From a virus (taxonomy: Duplodnaviria > Heunggongvirae > Uroviricota > Caudoviricetes), in the IMG/VR virus record IMGVR_UViG_2585427735_000015: a stretch of 7,881 nt of DNA; one strand, 5' to 3'. A program made the translations under genes and the position numbers. The notes below the pieces were generated by a model. The model worked only from the letters and a program-made list of their open reading frames with translations, did not search any database and was not told the DNA's origin. Below are positions 1 through 7,881 of the stretch, one piece after another. Each line of letters begins with the position of its first letter. The first letter of the stretch is position 1.

Positions 1-2
1 TG

Positions 3-68
3 ACGTACCTGACAAACCTTTATTTCAAGATTAAAGAAGATAAGCGCAAGGCTGCGAGAGGTGAATAA
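3..68 (+). CDS. Holin C-terminus (pinholin S21-like), 5'-partial at window edge
   Basis: Frame ending in TAA at 66-68 reads ...[21 protein letters not shown], a charged C-terminal tail resembling the phage 21 pinholin as I recall it. The stop overlaps the endolysin ATG (TAATG), typical holin-endolysin coupling. Only 21 codons are visible. Confidence 0.5.
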
Positions 69-565
69 TGCCTCCATCATTACGAAAAGTCGTTGCTGCT
101 GCTATTGGTGGCGGAGCAATTGCTATAGCATCAGTGTTAATCACTGGCCCAAGTGGTAACGATGGTCTGGAAGGTGTCAGCTACATACCATACAAAGATA
201 TTGTTGGTGTATGGACTGTATGTCACGGGCATACAGGAAAAGACATCATGCTCGGTAAAACGTATACCAAAGCAGAATGCAAAACACTCTTGAATAAAGA
301 CCTTGCCACGGTCGCCAGACAAATTAACCCGTACATCAAAGTCGATATACCGGAAACAACGCGCGGCGCTCTTTACTCATTCGTTTACAACGTGGGTGCT
401 GGCAATTTCAGAACATCGACGCTTCTTCGCAAAATAAACCAGGGCGATATCAAAGGCGCATGTGATCAGCTACGTCGCTGGACATATGCTGGCGGTAAGC
501 AATGGAAAGGTCTCATGACTCGTCGTGAGATTGAGCGTGAAATCTGTTTGTGGGGTCAGCAATGA
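68..565 (+). CDS. R: SAR endolysin (phage lysozyme, T4-lysozyme-like fold; phage 21 R / RrrD-type)
   Basis: 165-aa ORF with an N-terminal Gly/Ala-rich weakly hydrophobic segment ([20 protein letters not shown]) typical of a signal-anchor-release domain. E35, D44 and T50 sit at the catalytic-triad positions of R21-type lysozymes. Near-identical by recall to P21 R and the E. coli prophage lysozymes RrrD/RrrQ. Confidence 0.93.
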
Positions 566-1026
566 ACAGAGTAACCGCGATTATCTCCGCTCTGGTTATC
601 TGCATCGTCGTCTGCCTGTCATGGGGTGTTAATCATTACCGTGATAACGCCATCGCCTACAAAGAACAGCGCGACAAAAATGCCAGAGAACTGAAGCTGG
701 CGAACGCGGCAATTACTGACATGCAGATGCGTCAGCGTGATGTTGCTGCGCTCGATGCAAAATACACGAAGGAGTTAGCTGATGCGAAAGCTGAAAATGA
801 TGTTCTGCGTGATGATGTTGCCGCTGGTCGTCGTCGGTTGCACATCAAAGCAGTCTGTCAGTCAGTGCGTGAAGCCACCACCGCCTCCGGCGTGGATAAT
901 GCAGCCTCCCCCCGACTGGCAGACACCGCTGAACGGGATTATTTCACCCTCCGGGAACGACTGGTAATGATGCAGGCCCAACTTGAAGGTGCTCAGCAAT
1001 ACATAACCGAGCAGTGTTTAAAGTAA
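562..1026 (+). CDS. Rz: Rz i-spanin (inner-membrane spanin subunit)
   Basis: ATG at 562 overlaps the endolysin stop (ATGA). N-terminal transmembrane helix ([20 protein letters not shown]) followed by a long charged, predicted coiled-coil periplasmic domain. Position immediately after the endolysin and the embedded Rz1 gene match the lambda Rz architecture. The ORF track's GTG at 550 is a less likely start. Confidence 0.9.
782..967 (+). CDS. Rz1: Rz1 o-spanin (outer-membrane lipoprotein), embedded in +1 frame inside Rz
   Basis: 61-aa ORF wholly inside Rz in another frame. Signal peptide with lipobox (LVVVGC), then a proline-rich mature region ([27 protein letters not shown]), close to lambda Rz1 / K-12 RzoR as I recall them. 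Confidence 0.9.
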
Positions 1027-1097
1027 AATCTTAACTACAATATGATTCATTTTGATGATTGTTTCATAAGGAACAGTGAAGTAAGATCTAAGAGGAG

Positions 1098-1146
1098 TTA
1101 AATTTTATACAGTATAATCATAATATTGCAGCAAGGTGGTTATAAT
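1098..1146 (+). promoter_or_regulatory. Possible sigma70-type promoter elements upstream of trkG (weak)
   Basis: AT-rich intergenic region with exact TATAAT hexamers at 1113-1118 and 1141-1146 and a TTGCAG at 1126-1131, but no -35/-10 pair with canonical 16-18 bp spacing. Based on hexamer matches only. Confidence 0.25.
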
Positions 1147-1163
1147 TGAAAGAATATTTAGAT

Positions 1164-2621
1164 ATGAATACATCTCATGTAAGAGTTGTTACTCATATGT
1201 GTGGGTTCCTGGTTTGGCTCTATAGTCTTTCAATGTTGCCACCAATGGTTGTAGCATTGTTTTATAAAGAAAAAAGCCTGTTCGTTTTCTTTATAACTTT
1301 CGTTATATTTTTTTGCATTGGTGGCGGAGCGTGGTATACAACTAAGAAATCTGGCATTCAATTACGTACCCGTGATGGGTTTATTATAATTGTAATGTTT
1401 TGGATTTTGTTTTCTGTTATTAGTGCATTCCCTTTATGGATTGACTCAGAACTTAATTTAACGTTCATTGATGCTCTGTTTGAAGGGGTTTCTGGAATAA
1501 CAACAACAGGAGCAACTGTAATTGATGATGTTAGTTCATTACCTCGGGCATATTTGTACTATCGGTCACAGTTAAATTTTATAGGTGGTTTAGGAGTTAT
1601 TGTTCTGGCGGTTGCTGTATTGCCATTATTGGGTATTGGTGGTGCAAAGCTTTATCAGTCAGAAATGCCGGGGCCATTTAAGGATGACAAACTCACTCCC
1701 CGCCTGGCCGATACGTCACGGACACTGTGGATAACTTATTCTTTATTAGGTATTGCTTGTATTGTCTGTTATAGACTTGCAGGAATGCCTTTGTTTGATG
1801 CTATTTGTCACGGGATTTCCACAGTTTCGCTTGGTGGTTTCTCAACTCATAGCGAGAGTATCGGATATTTTAATAACTATTTGGTTGAGCTGGTGGCTGG
1901 TTCTTTTTCCCTGCTATCGGCTTTCAACTTCACTCTTTGGTATATTGTTATTAGCAGGAAAACGATAAAACCTTTAATCAGAGATATTGAACTTCGTTTC
2001 TTTCTGTTAATAGCCTTAGGGGTGATCATTGTTACCTCTTTCCAGGTCTGGCATATAGGTATGTATGACTTGCATGGAAGTTTTATTCATTCGTTTTTTC
2101 TTGCCAGCTCCATGCTCACTGATAATGGTTTAGCTACGCAGGATTATGCAAGTTGGCCCACGCACACGATAGTGTTTTTGCTGTTGTCAAGTTTCTTTGG
2201 GGGATGTATAGGTTCAACTTGTGGTGGAATTAAGTCACTTCGATTTCTTATACTTTTCAAACAAAGCAAACACGAGATAAATCAGCTTTCTCATCCCAGA
2301 GCGTTGTTGAGTGTAAATGTAGGAGGGAAGATAGTTACAGATCGTGTAATGAGGTCTGTATGGAGTTTCTTTTTTCTTTATACTCTCTTCACGGTGTTTT
2401 TTATACTGGTGTTAAATGGTATGGGATATGATTTTCTTACATCATTTGCAACAGTGGCTGCATGTATTAATAATATGGGATTAGGTTTTGGGGCTACTGC
2501 ATCGTCATTCGGAGTGCTTAATGACATTGCAAAATGTTTAATGTGCATAGCTATGATTCTTGGTCGCCTTGAAATTTATCCTGTTATTATATTGTTTTCA
2601 GGTTTTTTTTGGCGCTCCTAA
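1164..2621 (+). CDS. trkG: TrkG, Trk-system K+ uptake membrane protein (TrkH/TrkG family)
   Basis: 485-aa polytopic membrane protein starting MNTSHVRVVTHMCGFLVWLY at ATG 1164, which I recognise as E. coli TrkG, the Rac-prophage-encoded TrkH paralogue. Contains repeated pore-loop-like glycine motifs (GITTTGAT, GGFSTH, GLATQDYASW, NNMGLG). Strongly AT-rich compared with flanking phage genes. The ORF track's 1146 start is a TTG 6 codons upstream and less likely. Confidence 0.93.
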   Translation: MNTSHVRVVTHMCGFLVWLYSLSMLPPMVVALFYKEKSLFVFFITFVIFFCIGGGAWYTTKKSGIQLRTRDGFIIIVMFWILFSVISAFPLWIDSELNLTFIDALFEGVSGITTTGATVIDDVSSLPRAYLYYRSQLNFIGGLGVIVLAVAVLPLLGIGGAKLYQSEMPGPFKDDKLTPRLADTSRTLWITYSLLGIACIVCYRLAGMPLFDAICHGISTVSLGGFSTHSESIGYFNNYLVELVAGSFSLLSAFNFTLWYIVISRKTIKPLIRDIELRFFLLIALGVIIVTSFQVWHIGMYDLHGSFIHSFFLASSMLTDNGLATQDYASWPTHTIVFLLLSSFFGGCIGSTCGGIKSLRFLILFKQSKHEINQLSHPRALLSVNVGGKIVTDRVMRSVWSFFFLYTLFTVFFILVLNGMGYDFLTSFATVAACINNMGLGFGATASSFGVLNDIAKCLMCIAMILGRLEIYPVIILFSGFFWRS

Positions 2622-2707
2622 TATATGGCTGATTTATAATTGTGAGTTTAATATTATGTTGACTCACTCATTGATCCAATACCTAACTTTACCAGCAACC
2701 CCTCCGT

Positions 2708-2742
2708 CCCCAGTAGCACTGGCTGCTGGGGTGCGTTTTATT
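2708..2742 (+). terminator. Rho-independent terminator-like hairpin downstream of trkG
   Basis: GC-rich inverted repeat CCCCAGTAGC (2708-2717) / GCTGCTGGGG (2722-2731), 10-bp stem with one mismatch and a 4-nt loop, followed by TGCGTTTTATT. Lies in the trkG-ynaK intergenic region, 17 nt before the next start codon. Confidence 0.5.
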
Positions 2743-2758
2743 CATAAAGCAAGGCTGT

Positions 2759-3550
2759 ATGAGCGAGAAATTAAAGATAGTCTATCGCCCATTACAAGAA
2801 TTGTCACCGTATGCGCACAACGCCAGGACGCACAGCCCTGAGCAGGTGGCACAACTGGTAGAAAGTATTAAGCAATTCGGCTGGACTAATCCGGTGCTGA
2901 TTGACGAAAAGGGCGAAATTATTGCGGGTCACGGTCGTGTTATGGCGGCTGAAATGCTCAAAATGGATTCTGTTCCGGTCATTGTTCTGTCTGGCCTGAC
3001 GGATGAGCAGAAAAAGGCGTACCGCCTGGCAGATAATCGCCTGCCGATGAATGCTGGCTGGGATGAAGATCTGTTGCGGATGGAGCTGTCGGACCTAATC
3101 AATGCTGATTTTGATGTCTCCCTGACAGGCTTCATCCCGACAGAAATTGATGAACTGTTGACGGATGTTTTGCCCGGTACAGGAAATGAGGAGGAGCCGT
3201 ATACGACGAAAATTGATACGCCTGTTTATGAGCCGTCGGGCGGTAAACCGGATATCAGTGAACTGTACGACGATACGAAAACTCAGGAGCTGATCAGCCG
3301 GATACGTTCGGCGTCCCTTGAGCCTGATATTGAGAAATTCCTCCTGTGTGCGGCAGAACGTCACACGGTGTTTAATTTCAGCAGAATTGCGGACTATTAC
3401 GCTCACGCCCCCTCTGAAATTCAGTGTTTTTTCGAGGAGTCGGCGCTGGTGATCATTGATTATCAGCAGGCTATTGAAAATGGATTTGTCCGGATGACGC
3501 AGCGCATGGTGGAGATCATGCATGGTGGTGAGGAGGAGGAATATGCGTGA
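2759..3550 (+). CDS. ynaK: ParB/Srx-like nuclease-domain protein (YnaK-like)
   Basis: 263-aa ORF. The N-terminal ~90 aa carry the ParB N-terminal domain signature (LSPYAHNARTHSPEQVAQLVESIKQFGWTNPVLID...IIAGHGRVMAA, an arginine motif analogous to ParB GERRxRA). The C-terminal ~170 aa are of unknown function and end in an acidic tail (GGEEEEYA). Gene order trkG then ParB-like matches K-12 Rac (trkG-ynaK-ydaY); the symbol is assigned by synteny and recall. Confidence 0.8.
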   Translation: MSEKLKIVYRPLQELSPYAHNARTHSPEQVAQLVESIKQFGWTNPVLIDEKGEIIAGHGRVMAAEMLKMDSVPVIVLSGLTDEQKKAYRLADNRLPMNAGWDEDLLRMELSDLINADFDVSLTGFIPTEIDELLTDVLPGTGNEEEPYTTKIDTPVYEPSGGKPDISELYDDTKTQELISRIRSASLEPDIEKFLLCAAERHTVFNFSRIADYYAHAPSEIQCFFEESALVIIDYQQAIENGFVRMTQRMVEIMHGGEEEEYA

Positions 3551-4475
3551 TGATTTTTGCGCCTTTATTCTGACTCACGGGCGACCGGACAAAGTTCTGA
3601 CTTACCGGACGTTGCGTCGTGCTGGCTATACCGGGAAAATTTTTATCGTTGTTGATGATGAAGATAAGACACGGAATCAGTACATGGCTGAATTTGGTGA
3701 ACAGGTGCTGGTGTTTTCCAAAGCCGATATCGCCAGTCGTTTTGACGAAGCCGATAATTTCTGTGACCGCCGCTCAATTTTTTACGCCCGTAATGCCTGT
3801 TTCGACCTGGCAAAACTGGTCGGGTGTAAATACTTCATTCAGCTCGATGATGATTATCACGAGTTCCAGTTTCGGGTGGATCGCAACTATGACCAGGCCT
3901 ATTTTCCGATAAGGAAACTGGATGCGATCCTTTCTGAAATGCTGGCGTACTACGAATCAATACCTGCTCTTTCCATCGCTATGTCGCAGGGCGGGGATTT
4001 TCTTGGTGACAATGGCGGCCATGCTTCGTGGGTGAAACGCAAGGCAATGAACAGCTTTATCTGTTCGGTTGATCGACCGTTCTCATTCATGGGGCGCATT
4101 AACGAGGATGTGAATACGTACACGAATCTCGGTCGCTGTGGTGAATTGTTTATGACGATCGGTGCTGTCCAGTTAGGGCAGAAACAGACGCAGAAAAACA
4201 GCGGCGGAATGACCGAGCTGTATCTGGATTCCGGAACCTACGTTAAAAGTTTTTACTCCGTCATGTATGCGCCGTCGTGCGTAAAAATCTCACTGATGGG
4301 TGCCAGCCATAAACGCATTCACCATCAGGTCACCTGGAACAACGCTGCAGTAAAAATCCTTCACGAAAAATACAGGAAGAAGACACCCTGCATATCAATG
4401 GGGGTGACAAATGATTCCGTATTCGAAAGTCGAGTCTCTGGCAGCGTGCCGGATGACTGCACAACAAATCGCTGA
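3543..4475 (+). CDS. ydaY: YdaY-like protein with GT-A (nucleotide-diphospho-sugar transferase)-like motifs; function unknown
   Basis: ATG at 3543 is preceded by GGAGGAGGA (a strong SD, 5-6 nt spacer) and overlaps the ynaK stop (ATGCGTGA). Contains CAFILTHGRPD...KIFIVVDDEDK and ARNACFDLAKLVGCKYFIQLDDDY, which resemble the first beta-strand/DD and ARNxG...DxD motifs of GT-A fold glycosyltransferases. The ORF track's ATG at 3522 lies inside the SD and is less likely. Confidence 0.7.
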   Translation: MRDDFCAFILTHGRPDKVLTYRTLRRAGYTGKIFIVVDDEDKTRNQYMAEFGEQVLVFSKADIASRFDEADNFCDRRSIFYARNACFDLAKLVGCKYFIQLDDDYHEFQFRVDRNYDQAYFPIRKLDAILSEMLAYYESIPALSIAMSQGGDFLGDNGGHASWVKRKAMNSFICSVDRPFSFMGRINEDVNTYTNLGRCGELFMTIGAVQLGQKQTQKNSGGMTELYLDSGTYVKSFYSVMYAPSCVKISLMGASHKRIHHQVTWNNAAVKILHEKYRKKTPCISMGVTNDSVFESRVSGSVPDDCTTNR

Positions 4476-4662
4476 CGTTCTGGATGTTGATCTGAACCGA
4501 CTGAAAGAAAATCGGGAAGCAATGACAGATTTTTATGCGGCCATCCGTAAGGGCAGAGCGAAAGGTGAAGCCGAGTTACGAGCGGCATTGTTTAAGCTTG
4601 CCAGAAAAGGGGATGCCTTTGCTCTGCGCGAACTACTCAGGGTGGATAAAAATCAGGACTAA
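4411..4662 (+). CDS. Small hypothetical protein, helical and charged, possible HTH DNA-binding protein
   Basis: 83-aa ORF preceded by GGGGTGA (4401-4407). Overlaps the 3' end of the ydaY-like gene by 65 nt in another frame; an internal ATG at 4453 (MTAQQIADVL...) would cut the overlap to 23 nt. The sequence TAQQIADVLDVDLNRL looks HTH-like. Ends 3 nt before the terS ATG. Confidence 0.45.
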   Translation: MIPYSKVESLAACRMTAQQIADVLDVDLNRLKENREAMTDFYAAIRKGRAKGEAELRAALFKLARKGDAFALRELLRVDKNQD

Positions 4663-4665
4663 CTG

Positions 4666-5760
4666 ATGAGCAGACCGGACTGGGGGGCGTTGCAGCAGGA
4701 GTATATTGCTGAATACACCCGCTCCGGTATATCTCCGGTGGCATGGTGTGAAGCAAGGGGACTGAATTACGCAACAGCCCGTCGTTACATCAAAAAAACT
4801 CCGAAAAATGCGCAGACAGAAATGTGCAAAACTGCGCAAAAAAGTGCGCAGAAAAAATCTGCGCAGACTGCACAAAAGCGGAACGAAAAATCTCAGGAAA
4901 AAAAGCCAGTATTCGATGCGGGCCTGAATGAGGGCGACGCGGAGGAATTTTCGTTCTGTCCCGATGAATTCGGCATTTCTGACCAGCAGGCTAAGTTTGC
5001 GATGCTTGTTGCTCAGGGTAAAAAGCCGACAGAGGCGTACCGACTAGCCGGTTATGAGGGGCAAGGTGCGACAGCTAACAGCAACGCCAGTCGTATGCTT
5101 AGAAATGCCAGGGTTTTTCGCGCTATCAGCTACTTCCGCAATCAGTACCAGAAACGCTATACCGCAGACCTGGATTTACTAGTGAGTCAGTTGATGGCTA
5201 TTGTCCTGGCCGACCCCAATCAGCTTGCACAATTTCGCCGTGTTAACTGCCGTTATTGCTGGGGCGAGAATCATCTCTACCAGTGGCGCGATATAGCAGA
5301 ATTCGACAAGGCAGCGGCGCAGGCTTCCAGAGATGGCAAACCCGAACCGGAATATGGAGGCCTCGGCTTTGTTGATAACGCCATACCCAATCCGGACTGC
5401 CCGAAGTGCTGCGGTGAGGGAACGGGACAGCTTTATATGGCTGATACCACTCTGCTTGATGGGGATGCGCGGCAATTATATGCAGGGGCAAAATTCGGAA
5501 AATTCGGCGTTGAGATCCTGCTGGAGGATAAGGCTGCCGCCCGGCGTGAATTGTTGCGTTTGTTTTCTGCTGGCGGGGCTTTATGTGCAGATAAACGGCT
5601 ACAGGAACTGGAAATTGAACGGCGCAGAATGGAAAACCAGAAGCTGCGCAAAGAGATCGAAACGGTGGAAGATAATGAACATCCCCAGCCTGTGGCGATC
5701 AATATTAATGTGGTTGATGCCAGAGTAAGGAGTGATGAAGATGATCTCTCCGACGCTTAA
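4666..5760 (+). CDS. Terminase small subunit (TerS), extended form
   Basis: 364-aa ORF with AGGA SD 7 nt upstream. N-terminal HTH-like region (ISPVAWCEARGLNYATARRYIKK) and a segment (GISDQQAKFAMLVAQGKKPTEAYRLAGYEG...ANSNASRMLRNARV) matching the small-terminase family signature as I recall it. Sits directly upstream of, and overlaps, the large-terminase gene. Carries an unusual Lys/Gln-rich repeat linker and a CxxC...CxxCC motif. Confidence 0.8.
   Translation: MSRPDWGALQQEYIAEYTRSGISPVAWCEARGLNYATARRYIKKTPKNAQTEMCKTAQKSAQKKSAQTAQKRNEKSQEKKPVFDAGLNEGDAEEFSFCPDEFGISDQQAKFAMLVAQGKKPTEAYRLAGYEGQGATANSNASRMLRNARVFRAISYFRNQYQKRYTADLDLLVSQLMAIVLADPNQLAQFRRVNCRYCWGENHLYQWRDIAEFDKAAAQASRDGKPEPEYGGLGFVDNAIPNPDCPKCCGEGTGQLYMADTTLLDGDARQLYAGAKFGKFGVEILLEDKAAARRELLRLFSAGGALCADKRLQELEIERRRMENQKLRKEIETVEDNEHPQPVAININVVDARVRSDEDDLSDA
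4808..4876 (+). repeat. Degenerate tandem TGCGCA(G/A)A repeats inside terS
   Basis: Six spaced copies of (A/C/G)TG(C/T)GCA(G/A)A at about 4808, 4823, 4832, 4844, 4859 and 4868, spaced 9-15 bp apart. They encode the AQK/SAQ-rich peptide NAQTEMCKTAQKSAQKKSAQTAQKR. Confidence 0.45.
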
Positions 5761-6496
5761 TGTGCCTCAGGCGCGATTTCTTTCAATGCCCCATAAATTT
5801 AAAGCCTATATTGCTGGTTTTGGCTCGGGCAAAACATGGGTTGGGTGTGGCGGCATATGCAAGGGGATTTGGGAGCATCCAGGTATAAATCAGGGATATT
5901 TTGCGCCAACGTATCCCCAAATTCGCGATATTTTTTACCCTACAGTGGAAGAAGTTGCTGCTGACTGGGGATTGAACGTAAAAATTAATGAGGGAAATAA
6001 AGAGGTTCACTTTTATTACGGACGCCAGTATCGGGGAACCACTATCTGCAGATCGATGGAGAAGCCACAAACGATCGTCGGTTTCAAAATTGGTAATGCG
6101 TTGGTGGATGAACTGGACATTTTGCCGAAGGAAAAAGCCAGAACGGCGTGGCGCAAGATAATTGCACGTATGCGTTATAAGATTGATGGACTTCGCAACG
6201 GTATTGACGTTACAACCACGCCGGAAGGATTCAAATTTGTCTACGAGCAGTTTGTTAAAGCCGTGCGTGAAAAAACAGAGCTGGCCTCACTGTATGGTCT
6301 GGTGCAGGCATCTACTTTCGATAATGAAAAGAACCTGCCAGCAGATTACATTCCTTCGCTTCTTGAATCATACCCTCCAGAGCTGATTAAAGCCTATCTT
6401 CGAGGACAGTTTACTAACCTGACAAGTGGTACTGTTTACCATCAGTTTGACCGGAAACTGAATAATTGCGAAGAAGTGGAGCAGCCAGGGGAGTAA
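5741..6496 (+). pseudogene. Terminase large subunit (TerL), N-terminal ATPase fragment truncated by IS4 insertion
   Basis: Start ATG 5741 is preceded by TAAGGAG (5726-5732, 8-nt spacer). Walker A (AGFGSGKT) and Walker B-like (ALVDELD) motifs typical of the TerL ATPase domain. The ORF stops after ~250 codons at a TAA that coincides with the first bases of the IS4 left end, whereas typical TerL is 450-650 aa and the nuclease domain is missing. Confidence 0.8.
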
Positions 6497-6542
6497 TGCC
6501 GATCAGTTAAGGATCAGTTGACCGATCCAGTGGCTGTGTAAG

Positions 6543-6577
6543 AATCCGGAAACGCTCACTTGTTTCCGGATTTTTTT
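6543..6577 (+). terminator. Perfect 11-bp stem-loop plus T7 tract in the IS4 left end, immediately upstream of the transposase ATG
   Basis: AATCCGGAAAC (6543-6553) and GTTTCCGGATT (6562-6572) are exact reverse complements with an 8-nt loop, followed by a T-run through 6577 and then ATG at 6578. No SD is apparent outside the stem. Confidence 0.55.
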
Positions 6578-7881
6578 ATGCACATTGGACAGGCTCTTGA
6601 TCTGGTATCCCGTTACGATTCTCTGCGTAACCCACTGACTTCTCTGGGGGATTACCTCGACCCCGAACTCATCTCTCGTTGCCTTGCCGAATCAGGTACT
6701 GTAACGCTACGCAAGCGCCGTCTTCCCCTCGAAATGATGGTCTGGTGTATTGTTGGCATGGCGCTTGAGCGTAAAGAACCTCTTCACCAGATTGTGAATC
6801 GCCTGGACATCATGTTGCCGGGCAATCGCCCCTTCGTTGCCCCCAGTGCCGTTATTCAGGCCCGCCAGCGCCTGGGAAGTGAGGCTGTCCGCCGCGTGTT
6901 CACGAAAACAGCGCAGCTCTGGCATAACGCCACGCCGCATCCGCACTGGTGCGGCCTGACCCTGCTGGCCATCGATGGTGTGTTCTGGCGCACACCGGAT
7001 ACACCAGAGAACGATGCAGCCTTCCCCCGCCAGACACATGCCGGGAACCCGGCGCTCTACCCGCAGGTCAAAATGGTCTGCCAGATGGAACTGACCAGCC
7101 ATCTGCTGACGGCTGCAGCCTTCGGCACGATGAAGAACAGCGAAAATGAGCTTGCTGAGCAACTTATAGAACAAACCGGCGATAACACTCTGACGTTAAT
7201 GGATAAAGGTTATTACTCACTGGGACTGTTAAATGCCTGGAGCCTGGCGGGAGAACACCGCCACTGGATGATACCTCTCAGAAAGGGAGCGCAATATGAA
7301 GAGATCAGAAAACTGGGTAAAGGCGATCATCTGGTGAAGCTGAAAACCAGCCCGCAGGCACGAAAAAAGTGGCCGGGACTGGGAAATGAAGTGACTGCCC
7401 GCCTGCTGACCGTGACGCGCAAAGGAAAAGTCTGCCATCTGCTGACGTCGATGACGGACGCCATGCGCTTCCCCGGAGGAGAAATGGGGGATCTGTACAG
7501 TCATCGCTGGGAAATCGAACTGGGATACAGGGAGATAAAACAGACGATGCAACGGAGCAGGCTGACGCTGAGAAGTAAAAAGCCGGAGCTTGTGGAGCAA
7601 GAGCTGTGGGGTGTCTTACTGGCTTATAATCTGGTGAGATATCAGATGATTAAAATGGCGGAACATCTGAAAGGTTACTGGCCGAATCAACTGAGTTTCT
7701 CAGAATCATGCGGAATGGTGATGAGAATGCTGATGACATTGCAGGGCGCTTCACCGGGACGTATACCGGAGCTGATGCGCGATCTTGCAAGTATGGGACA
7801 ACTTGTGAAATTACCGACAAGAAGGGAAAGGGCCTTCCCGAGAGTGGTAAAGGAGAGGCCCTGGAAATACCCCACAGCCCC
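6578..7881 (+). CDS. insG: IS4 transposase InsG (DDE family with YREK signature), 3'-partial at window edge
   Basis: Open frame from ATG 6578 to the window end (~434 codons, no stop), so absent from the supplied ORF track. Translation [36 protein letters not shown]... matches IS4 InsG as I recall it, with DDE-like residues in [19 protein letters not shown] and [13 protein letters not shown]. Confidence 0.9.

Follow-up and report, generated by a model that had tools for sequence, protein, structure and literature searches.

The terL–IS4 locus

The DNA considered here is a stretch of 7,881 nucleotides (hereafter the window) from the virus record IMGVR_UViG_2585427735_000015 of IMG/VR. Over its right-hand part, terL, the gene for the large terminase subunit of a prophage, runs directly into a copy of the insertion sequence (IS) element IS4, which then fills the window to its end. 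The prophage belongs to the Rac family of lambdoid prophages: window positions 582-3012, around the gene trkG, are 99.7% identical to the rzpR-rzoR-trkG-ynaK segment of the cryptic prophage Rac of Escherichia coli K-12 (Rz/Rz1, trkG and the start of a ParB-like gene). We are highly confident that an IS4 of the K-12 type transposed into a target in the linker-coding part of terL in such a prophage, in E. coli or Shigella, and truncated the gene.

What the window holds of terL is its 5′ part, codons 1-251, at positions 5741-6493 of the plus strand. The frame opens with an ATG at 5741, preceded by AAGGAG at 5727-5732, runs for 251 sense codons and closes with a TAA at 6494-6496, which agrees well with the original prediction of an end after about 250 codons. 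In the 251-residue product, the Pfam domain Terminase_6N covers residues 24-238 (E = 8e-34), and the frame encodes a Walker A motif (AGFGSGKT, residues 26-33), a Walker B motif (ALVDE, 120-124) and a TTT motif (158-160). The break does fall past the Walker motifs, as had been proposed, but it is not just past them: it lies beyond the whole ATPase domain. The product thus has the N-terminal ATPase domain of a T4-type large terminase, with both Walker motifs, and lacks the C-terminal RNaseH-like nuclease in the same polypeptide, since the open reading frame (ORF) ends at codon 251. Because the nuclease domain is absent, this terL is a truncated rather than a functional member of its class. The appropriate annotation is that of a pseudogene, which IS4 has split.

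An uninterrupted allele identifies the source of the stop codon. In E. coli 7/2, terL is 1302 nt long, encodes 433 residues and is 100% identical to the window over 5741-6493. Past GGGGAG, whose last base is window position 6493, that allele continues with CCGATTTAT (in another excerpt from the same base, CCGATTTATATTGGG), whereas the window diverges into the TAA at 6494-6496 (plus strand), which alignments to K-12 IS4 and to the intact allele identify as the first three bases of IS4. The stop is therefore supplied by IS4, as the original prediction held. The insertion falls on a codon boundary, so that translation ends right after Glu251. In the 433-residue protein, Pfam places Terminase_6N at residues 24-238 and the RNaseH-like domain Terminase_6C at residues 255-417; IS4 thus hits the coding sequence of the interdomain linker, and none of the nuclease domain remains in the product. 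The intact allele has both domains, like terminases of the T4 gp17 type, whereas in the window only the N-terminal ATPase domain is left in one reading frame. Beyond terL, E. coli 7/2 carries genes for a portal protein (DUF4055), a Mu F-like minor head protein, a DUF6651 protein and a P22-type capsid protein.

The element itself occupies positions 6494-7881 (plus strand, the orientation of terL) and corresponds to nucleotides 1-1388 of the 1426-bp IS4 of K-12, to which it is identical at 1387 of 1388 positions. The sole difference, TTG versus CTG at codon 80, is synonymous. In the K-12 annotation, the transposase gene insG (b4278) has its ATG 84 nt inside one end of the element and its stop 13 nt inside the other. 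Applied to the ATG at 6578 in the window, the 84-nt offset puts the left end at 6494, where the sequence begins with TAATGCCGATCAG, and the alignment to K-12 is perfect from exactly this point. The left terminal inverted repeat is 18 bp long (6494-6511, plus strand) and matches the right repeat of K-12 IS4 at 16 of 18 positions, as judged from the two K-12 ends. The insG frame (6578-7881, plus strand) comprises codons 1-434 of 442, is open at the window end, and encodes the Pfam domains Nterm_IS4 (E = 3e-33) and DDE_Tnp_1 (E = 3e-31). Near-identity to the reference DNA and a single ORF with the IS4 N-terminal and DDE domains assign the element to IS4 of ISfinder (IS4 family, IS4 subgroup), which the original prediction had named and placed correctly. 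The K-12 copy shares with it the left inverted repeat, a hairpin before the ATG and the transposase; it lies between yjgZ and nanX at the target CAGAACCAAGAT, whereas the window copy lies in prophage terL at the target CAGCCAGGGGAG.

A different account would be that this large terminase is naturally short or split, its ATPase and nuclease being separate proteins. The PHROGs collection does hold an N-terminal family (phrog_38319, 271 positions, labelled "unknown function," matching this TerL up to residue 268) and a C-terminal one (phrog_10250, 228 positions, matching from residue 208). However, neither boundary falls at codon 251, and the two profiles overlap each other. Such separate families point to split or mis-called versions of this terL in phage databases, with the ATPase half mislabelled. 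At the present locus, moreover, the stop is IS4 sequence, and elsewhere the gene is continuous. Of 5426 complete E. coli genomes, 785 have the 753 nt of terL before IS4, in most cases with at least 99% identity. A 600-nt probe centred on the site is found in 772 of the complete genomes, and 756 of these show no interruption there. TerL homologues occur in 846 phage records, and in 838 of them the match spans 80% or more of the 433 residues; the phage matches listed are each in one piece and range from Jersey-like Salmonella phages to a Pseudomonas phage. No homologue ending naturally at codon 251 was found among these 846 records or the E. coli genomes examined. The empty-site alleles thus refute a natural split at this locus, a reading to which we give practically no weight. 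The same continuous homologues, together with Terminase_6C at residues 255-417 of the 433-residue protein, uphold the earlier claim that a C-terminal nuclease domain has been cut off.

Siphoviruses that infect Salmonella and E. coli, Jersey-like ones among them, have full-length homologues of the intact TerL at about 40-50% identity; a search for a solved structure matching TerL by sequence returned none. Some phage records (vB_EcoS-...R..) have an identical terL. They are prophages in clinical-isolate genomes (bioRxiv 10.1101/2022.06.29.498070), so we did not accept them as proof that intact relatives form particles.

Target site, junction and sister insertions

Directly before IS4 lies CAGCCAGGGGAG (6482-6493, plus strand), the IS4 target and the left copy of an expected 12-bp target-site duplication. 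The right end of IS4 is expected at 7919, the window ending 38 nt before it, and the second copy of CAGCCAGGGGAG in the source of the window would lie at 7920-7931, past the window end. For a simple insertion, the DNA beyond 7881 is predicted to read CTGACTGGCATTA and then CAGCCAGGGGAGCCGATTTATATTGG. The right end of IS4 would close with GAAAAAGAGCCAGTCAGTTGCTTAACTGACTGGCATTA, followed by CAGCCAGGGGAG and then by CCGATTTATATTGGGATGGAT; directly past that end, CAGCCAGGGGAG and then CCGATTTATATTGG would be found.

Such an arrangement is present in a sister strain. A chimeric probe joining the terL flank to the other IS4 end matched one complete genome, that of E. coli 14EC029 (NZ_CP024141), in which IS4 sits at the identical terL nucleotide in the opposite orientation. 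Its left junction reads GTGGAG and CAGCCAGGGGAG and then enters IS4 at TAATGCCAGTCAG; at its right junction, IS4 ends with CTGATCGGCATTA and is followed by CAGCCAGGGGAG and CCGATTTAT. The same 12 bp therefore flank both ends of the element. Beyond IS4 come the 3′ part of terL, annotated as a pseudogene, and then portal and head genes. The split terL of 14EC029 (CR538_RS14200 and CR538_RS14190) agrees with the window in prophage family, site and 251-codon truncation, the last because both ends of IS4 start with TAATGCC and so bring an immediate stop in either orientation. It differs in the reversed orientation of IS4 and at 59 of 5952 flank positions, a divergence that argues for an insertion independent of the one in the window. 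A Logan contig (L003, read set SRR30348603) also carries an opposite-orientation junction at the same terL nucleotide, with 13 mismatches to the window background. The junction positions compared were 6482-6496 of the window, 8239-8262 and 9660-9700 of the 14EC029 locus (L013), and 5561-5601 of L003. Judging from these flanks and junctions, IS4 has entered terL at exactly this nucleotide in at least two independent events.

The junction of the window itself was present in none of the 5426 complete E. coli genomes, and its exact patterns had no match in species-representative genomes, JGI metagenomes or IMG/VR. It does occur, in the same orientation, in a second Logan contig (L004, read set SRR1186690) that is 100% identical to window positions 922-6519, including 26 nt of the left end of IS4; the junction is thus not peculiar to one assembly. 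This bears on the idea of an assembly chimera, in which the end of a terL contig was wrongly joined to an IS4 contig. Copies of an IS are classic sites of misassembly, and the read set behind the Logan contig could come from the same strain. That contig was nonetheless built independently, the join is base-pair precise at the IS4 terminus, the flank fits the IS4 target preference, and a second strain (14EC029) has IS4 at the same nucleotide. We consider a chimera very improbable.

Exact look-up of the 251-residue product otherwise returned short Logan contigs ending at or just inside IS4. The 254-residue start variant of the truncated TerL had no exact-protein match in this look-up, and the 253-residue variant matched one short contig. 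Some Logan contigs carry the intact allele and end 0-2 nt past the site. We rejected their reading as mixed alleles, since the look-up selects contigs that end there.

Some points weigh against our reading. The window ends before the right end of IS4, so that neither this end nor the second duplication copy nor the 3′ part of terL falls within it. The source genome, with its right junction, was not found in the databases searched, so a simple insertion is what we infer. The prophage may also carry lesions elsewhere. The junction could mark one border of an IS4-mediated rearrangement, either a deletion or an inversion between copies of the element, such that the DNA past the right end of IS4 would not be the rest of terL. 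IS4 is indeed multicopy in many E. coli genomes (as many as 32 places in a single complete genome), and the window stops before the right end. The Logan contig with the identical junction breaks off 26 nt inside IS4, which is what a genome with repeated copies of IS4 would give, and close relatives of the prophage have other IS-associated deletions (L021 and L023). Nevertheless, the sequence immediately to the left of IS4 suits the element well as a target, and the sister insertion of 14EC029 at this site is a simple one with a 12-bp duplication. A C-terminal TerL fragment of 177 residues starting at Met257 (MDFNVGKMAG...; accessions EEV9948153.1, EFO3269953.1, KEK73867.1 and STF82376.1 among others) is, in addition, annotated on 50 public contigs. 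These contigs indicate that split alleles keeping the 3′ part of terL exist; the cluster representative of the fragment (P0002) gave nothing but a fragmentary, unrelated contig from a metagenome. A rearrangement therefore has a small chance in our estimate, and a simple insertion in the genome of the window is very likely.

Reuse of one nucleotide invites a comparison with other targets of the element. From complete genomes we collected 12 distinct IS4 insertion sites (flanks L001, L012-L017 and L031-L035). The duplications were 12 bp long at nine sites, 13 bp at two and apparently 14 bp at one palindromic site; at the eleven sites other than terL they range from 12 to 14 bp. The targets share a roughly palindromic layout: an A-rich stretch, CG(C), a core like CAGCC..GG.(T/A)G, (C)CG and a stretch rich in T. 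At terL, the sequence gtggag CAGCCAGGGGAG ccgatttat is close to others such as CAGCGAGCGGAG ccgtttttt and CCTCCAGTGGAG agcattttt. That the terL site fits the target pattern would explain its reuse, and the site can be regarded as a minor IS4 hot spot. The same preference accounts for many megablast matches to IS4 that extended 10-20 nt into the terL flank, because it makes unrelated flanks alike. We had considered these matches as diverged copies of terL and rejected that reading, as the loci are unrelated (among them raiA-bamD, trg, yicI, lacY, hyfE and an IS66 tnpA).

The classical target consensus of IS4 is AAA-N20-TTT. Work of the Starlinger laboratory, from about 1979-1981, reportedly found polar IS4 insertions at one preferred galT site, in either orientation, with 11- to 13-bp duplications and inactivation of the gene. 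A search of the literature for the classical consensus yielded only a general statement of specificity, namely that the IS4 subgroup shows strong target-arm specificity (PMC2266710); the duplications of this subgroup are given there as 10-13 bp. The independent insertions in both orientations at one terL nucleotide illustrate strong target preference, which could confound the use of the terL insertion as a phylogenetic marker of lineage. A bolder view is that the linker site is a genuine hot spot of IS4, struck again and again in both orientations in different E. coli lineages, and that Rac-family prophages recurrently lose packaging in this way while keeping their lysis genes and trkG, a loss in principle reversible by precise excision across the 12-bp repeat. 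At least two independent insertions at this nucleotide are seen; a selective or regulatory meaning of the site would go beyond them, and we rate the bolder view as a whole as a long shot.

Packaging, polarity and the age of the insertion

In the mechanism that we propose, a K-12-type IS4 would have transposed into its preferred 12-bp target, CAGCCAGGGGAG, between the parts of terL that encode the ATPase and the nuclease. The TAA that opens the IS4 inverted repeat would end translation and leave a 251-residue, ATPase-only polypeptide, and the part encoding the nuclease would lie about 1.4 kb away, past the right end of IS4. With ATPase and nuclease no longer joined, cutting of concatemers and filling of heads would fail, and infectious particles would no longer be made. 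From what is established about two-domain terminases, a TerL that has lost its nuclease domain likely cannot mature and package DNA. Whatever condition its other genes are in, the prophage would then count as packaging-defective. As an event, this is ordinary IS-mediated prophage decay of an already known kind, a textbook element at a preferred target, and adds one more example of decay driven by an IS.

Transcription downstream of the insertion may be less affected than was first thought. Directly 5′ of the transposase ATG, in the path of transcription coming from terL, RNA folding finds a terminator-like hairpin (6540-6577, plus strand) with a 15-bp stem (6540-6554 paired with 6561-6575), a 6-nt loop and a U7 run at 6571-6577. 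Its minimum free energy is −23.5 kcal/mol (z = −5.6), and none of 200 shuffled sequences folds as well; a simple terminator scan did not list the hairpin at 6540-6577. A consensus scan adds a promoter-like site at 6518-6545 (plus strand; TTGACC, a 16-nt spacer and TG-AAGAAT), a pattern match only. With its putative −10 hexamer AAGAAT (6540-6545), this site reaches into the hairpin, whose left arm begins with that hexamer. Transcripts from this putative promoter would therefore lack the left arm, and only read-through from outside would fold the full hairpin. This layout looks like a shield of the transposase from outside transcription. Shielding of this kind is common among insertion sequences.

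The original prediction had made the hairpin polar on the head genes downstream. The hairpin with its U-tract is real, but the polarity is doubtful. In relatives, a gene for a Q antiterminator lies upstream of an operon in the order holin, lysozyme, Rz, trkG, ParB, TAGT, terS, terL and head genes, and in lambda, Q-modified RNA polymerase passes through terminators. Both facts make polarity doubtful upon induction, and the head genes may still be expressed then despite IS4. The galT insertions, by comparison, concern an ordinary operon and reportedly show strong polarity, whereas the terL insertion lies in a phage late operon, downstream of the Q antiterminator in relatives.

The insertion is recent. 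Ten long contigs that encode the identical small terminase subunit, TerS, all have the empty site and a 433-residue TerL, and three of them differ from window positions 1-6493 by a single mismatch. Prophages this close to the window, with the site still empty, argue for a young insertion.

The same comparison raises the question whether IS4 caused the defect at all. The prophage could have been defective already through lesions outside the window, IS4 then being a late and neutral arrival and not the cause of crypticity. Near-identical prophages (1-2 mismatches in 6493 nt) do include ones with a truncated portal gene or large deletions (L021 and L023), and in K-12 Rac a loss that begins inside the ParB-like gene has taken everything after it, among this terS, terL and the head genes. 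On the other side, everything visible 5′ of the junction is intact, with no gaps and 1-20 substitutions relative to complete relatives, and in two equally close relatives (L026 and L027) the head-tail region is complete over the extent read. An earlier defect would, besides, concern only cause and timing; the insertion itself is undisputed. We hold it to be possible though not probable. Since near-identical relatives are both complete and decayed, the state of the rest of the prophage does not follow from them, and IS4 may or may not be what made it defective.

Relatives show further lesions. In one close relative (L021), an IS with a DDE_Tnp_1_5 domain truncates the portal gene, and the head-tail region is lost. 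Another (L023) has a deletion after the portal gene. In a third prophage (L029), an IS3-family element lies between the TAGT gene and the small ORF that precedes terS. K-12 Rac, which matches the window only over 582-3012, took a different course from the window prophage: its deletion, starting inside the ParB-like gene, removed terS, terL and the head genes, whereas the window prophage keeps terS and terL, with IS4 in the latter. The prophage family decays by many routes.

Genes upstream of terL

The order lysozyme, Rz/Rz1, trkG, ParB-like gene, TAGT gene, terS and terL is common to many E. coli prophages. In the window, the small terminase gene terS (4666-5760, plus strand) is intact and encodes 364 residues with a Terminase_2 domain (Pfam) and a match to phrog_51, terminase small subunit; its final 20 nt overlap the start of terL. 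The exact TerS protein is listed in 17067 blocks of a public collection. The lysis cassette comprises lysozyme (68-565), Rz (550-1026) and the embedded Rz1 (782-967). Between this cassette and the packaging genes, trkG (1146-2621), a host-type potassium transporter gene, sits as cargo, and its position looks like one inside the late operon. The IS4 insertion leaves the lysis genes and trkG unaffected; the original suggestion that such intact genes are retained for host benefit is speculation.

The two genes between trkG and terS had been listed as an intact ynaK-ydaY pair, which does not hold. Positions 2759-3550 encode a full-length ParB-like protein of 263 residues, of which K-12 ynaK is an N-terminal remnant that keeps the first ~84 codons. 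The gene called ydaY (3543-4475 from the annotated start; the longest ORF begins at 3522) encodes a TAGT-family glycosyltransferase (PF20691, phrog_842). PF20691 is the TET-associated-glycosyltransferase family, and phrog_842 bears the label "beta-glucosyl-HMC-alpha-glucosyltransferase." In relatives, a gene of the actual YdaY family (PF27119) follows the tail tube gene, that is, beyond the window. The TAGT-family gene overlaps the preceding ParB-like gene, and the pair may form a DNA-modification module.

In some E. coli proteins (P0005 and P0048; 235 and 240 residues), a ParB_N domain is combined with the Terminase_6C of this TerL, which suggests deletion alleles in other strains that fuse the ParB-like gene to the 3′ part of terL. 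Just 5′ of terS lies a small ORF (4411-4662) of 83 residues from its first ATG, or 69 as called in relatives. It matches positions 145-218 of a small-terminase PHROG, phrog_309, so that two TerS-related ORFs may stand in tandem here. At the left edge, the lysozyme region (window 1-561, a 165-residue allele) cannot be aligned by blastn with that of E. coli 7/2 (L010, a 158-residue allele) and is identical in other relatives. On these alignments, the lysis cassette is mosaic, with the recombination boundary near window position 560.

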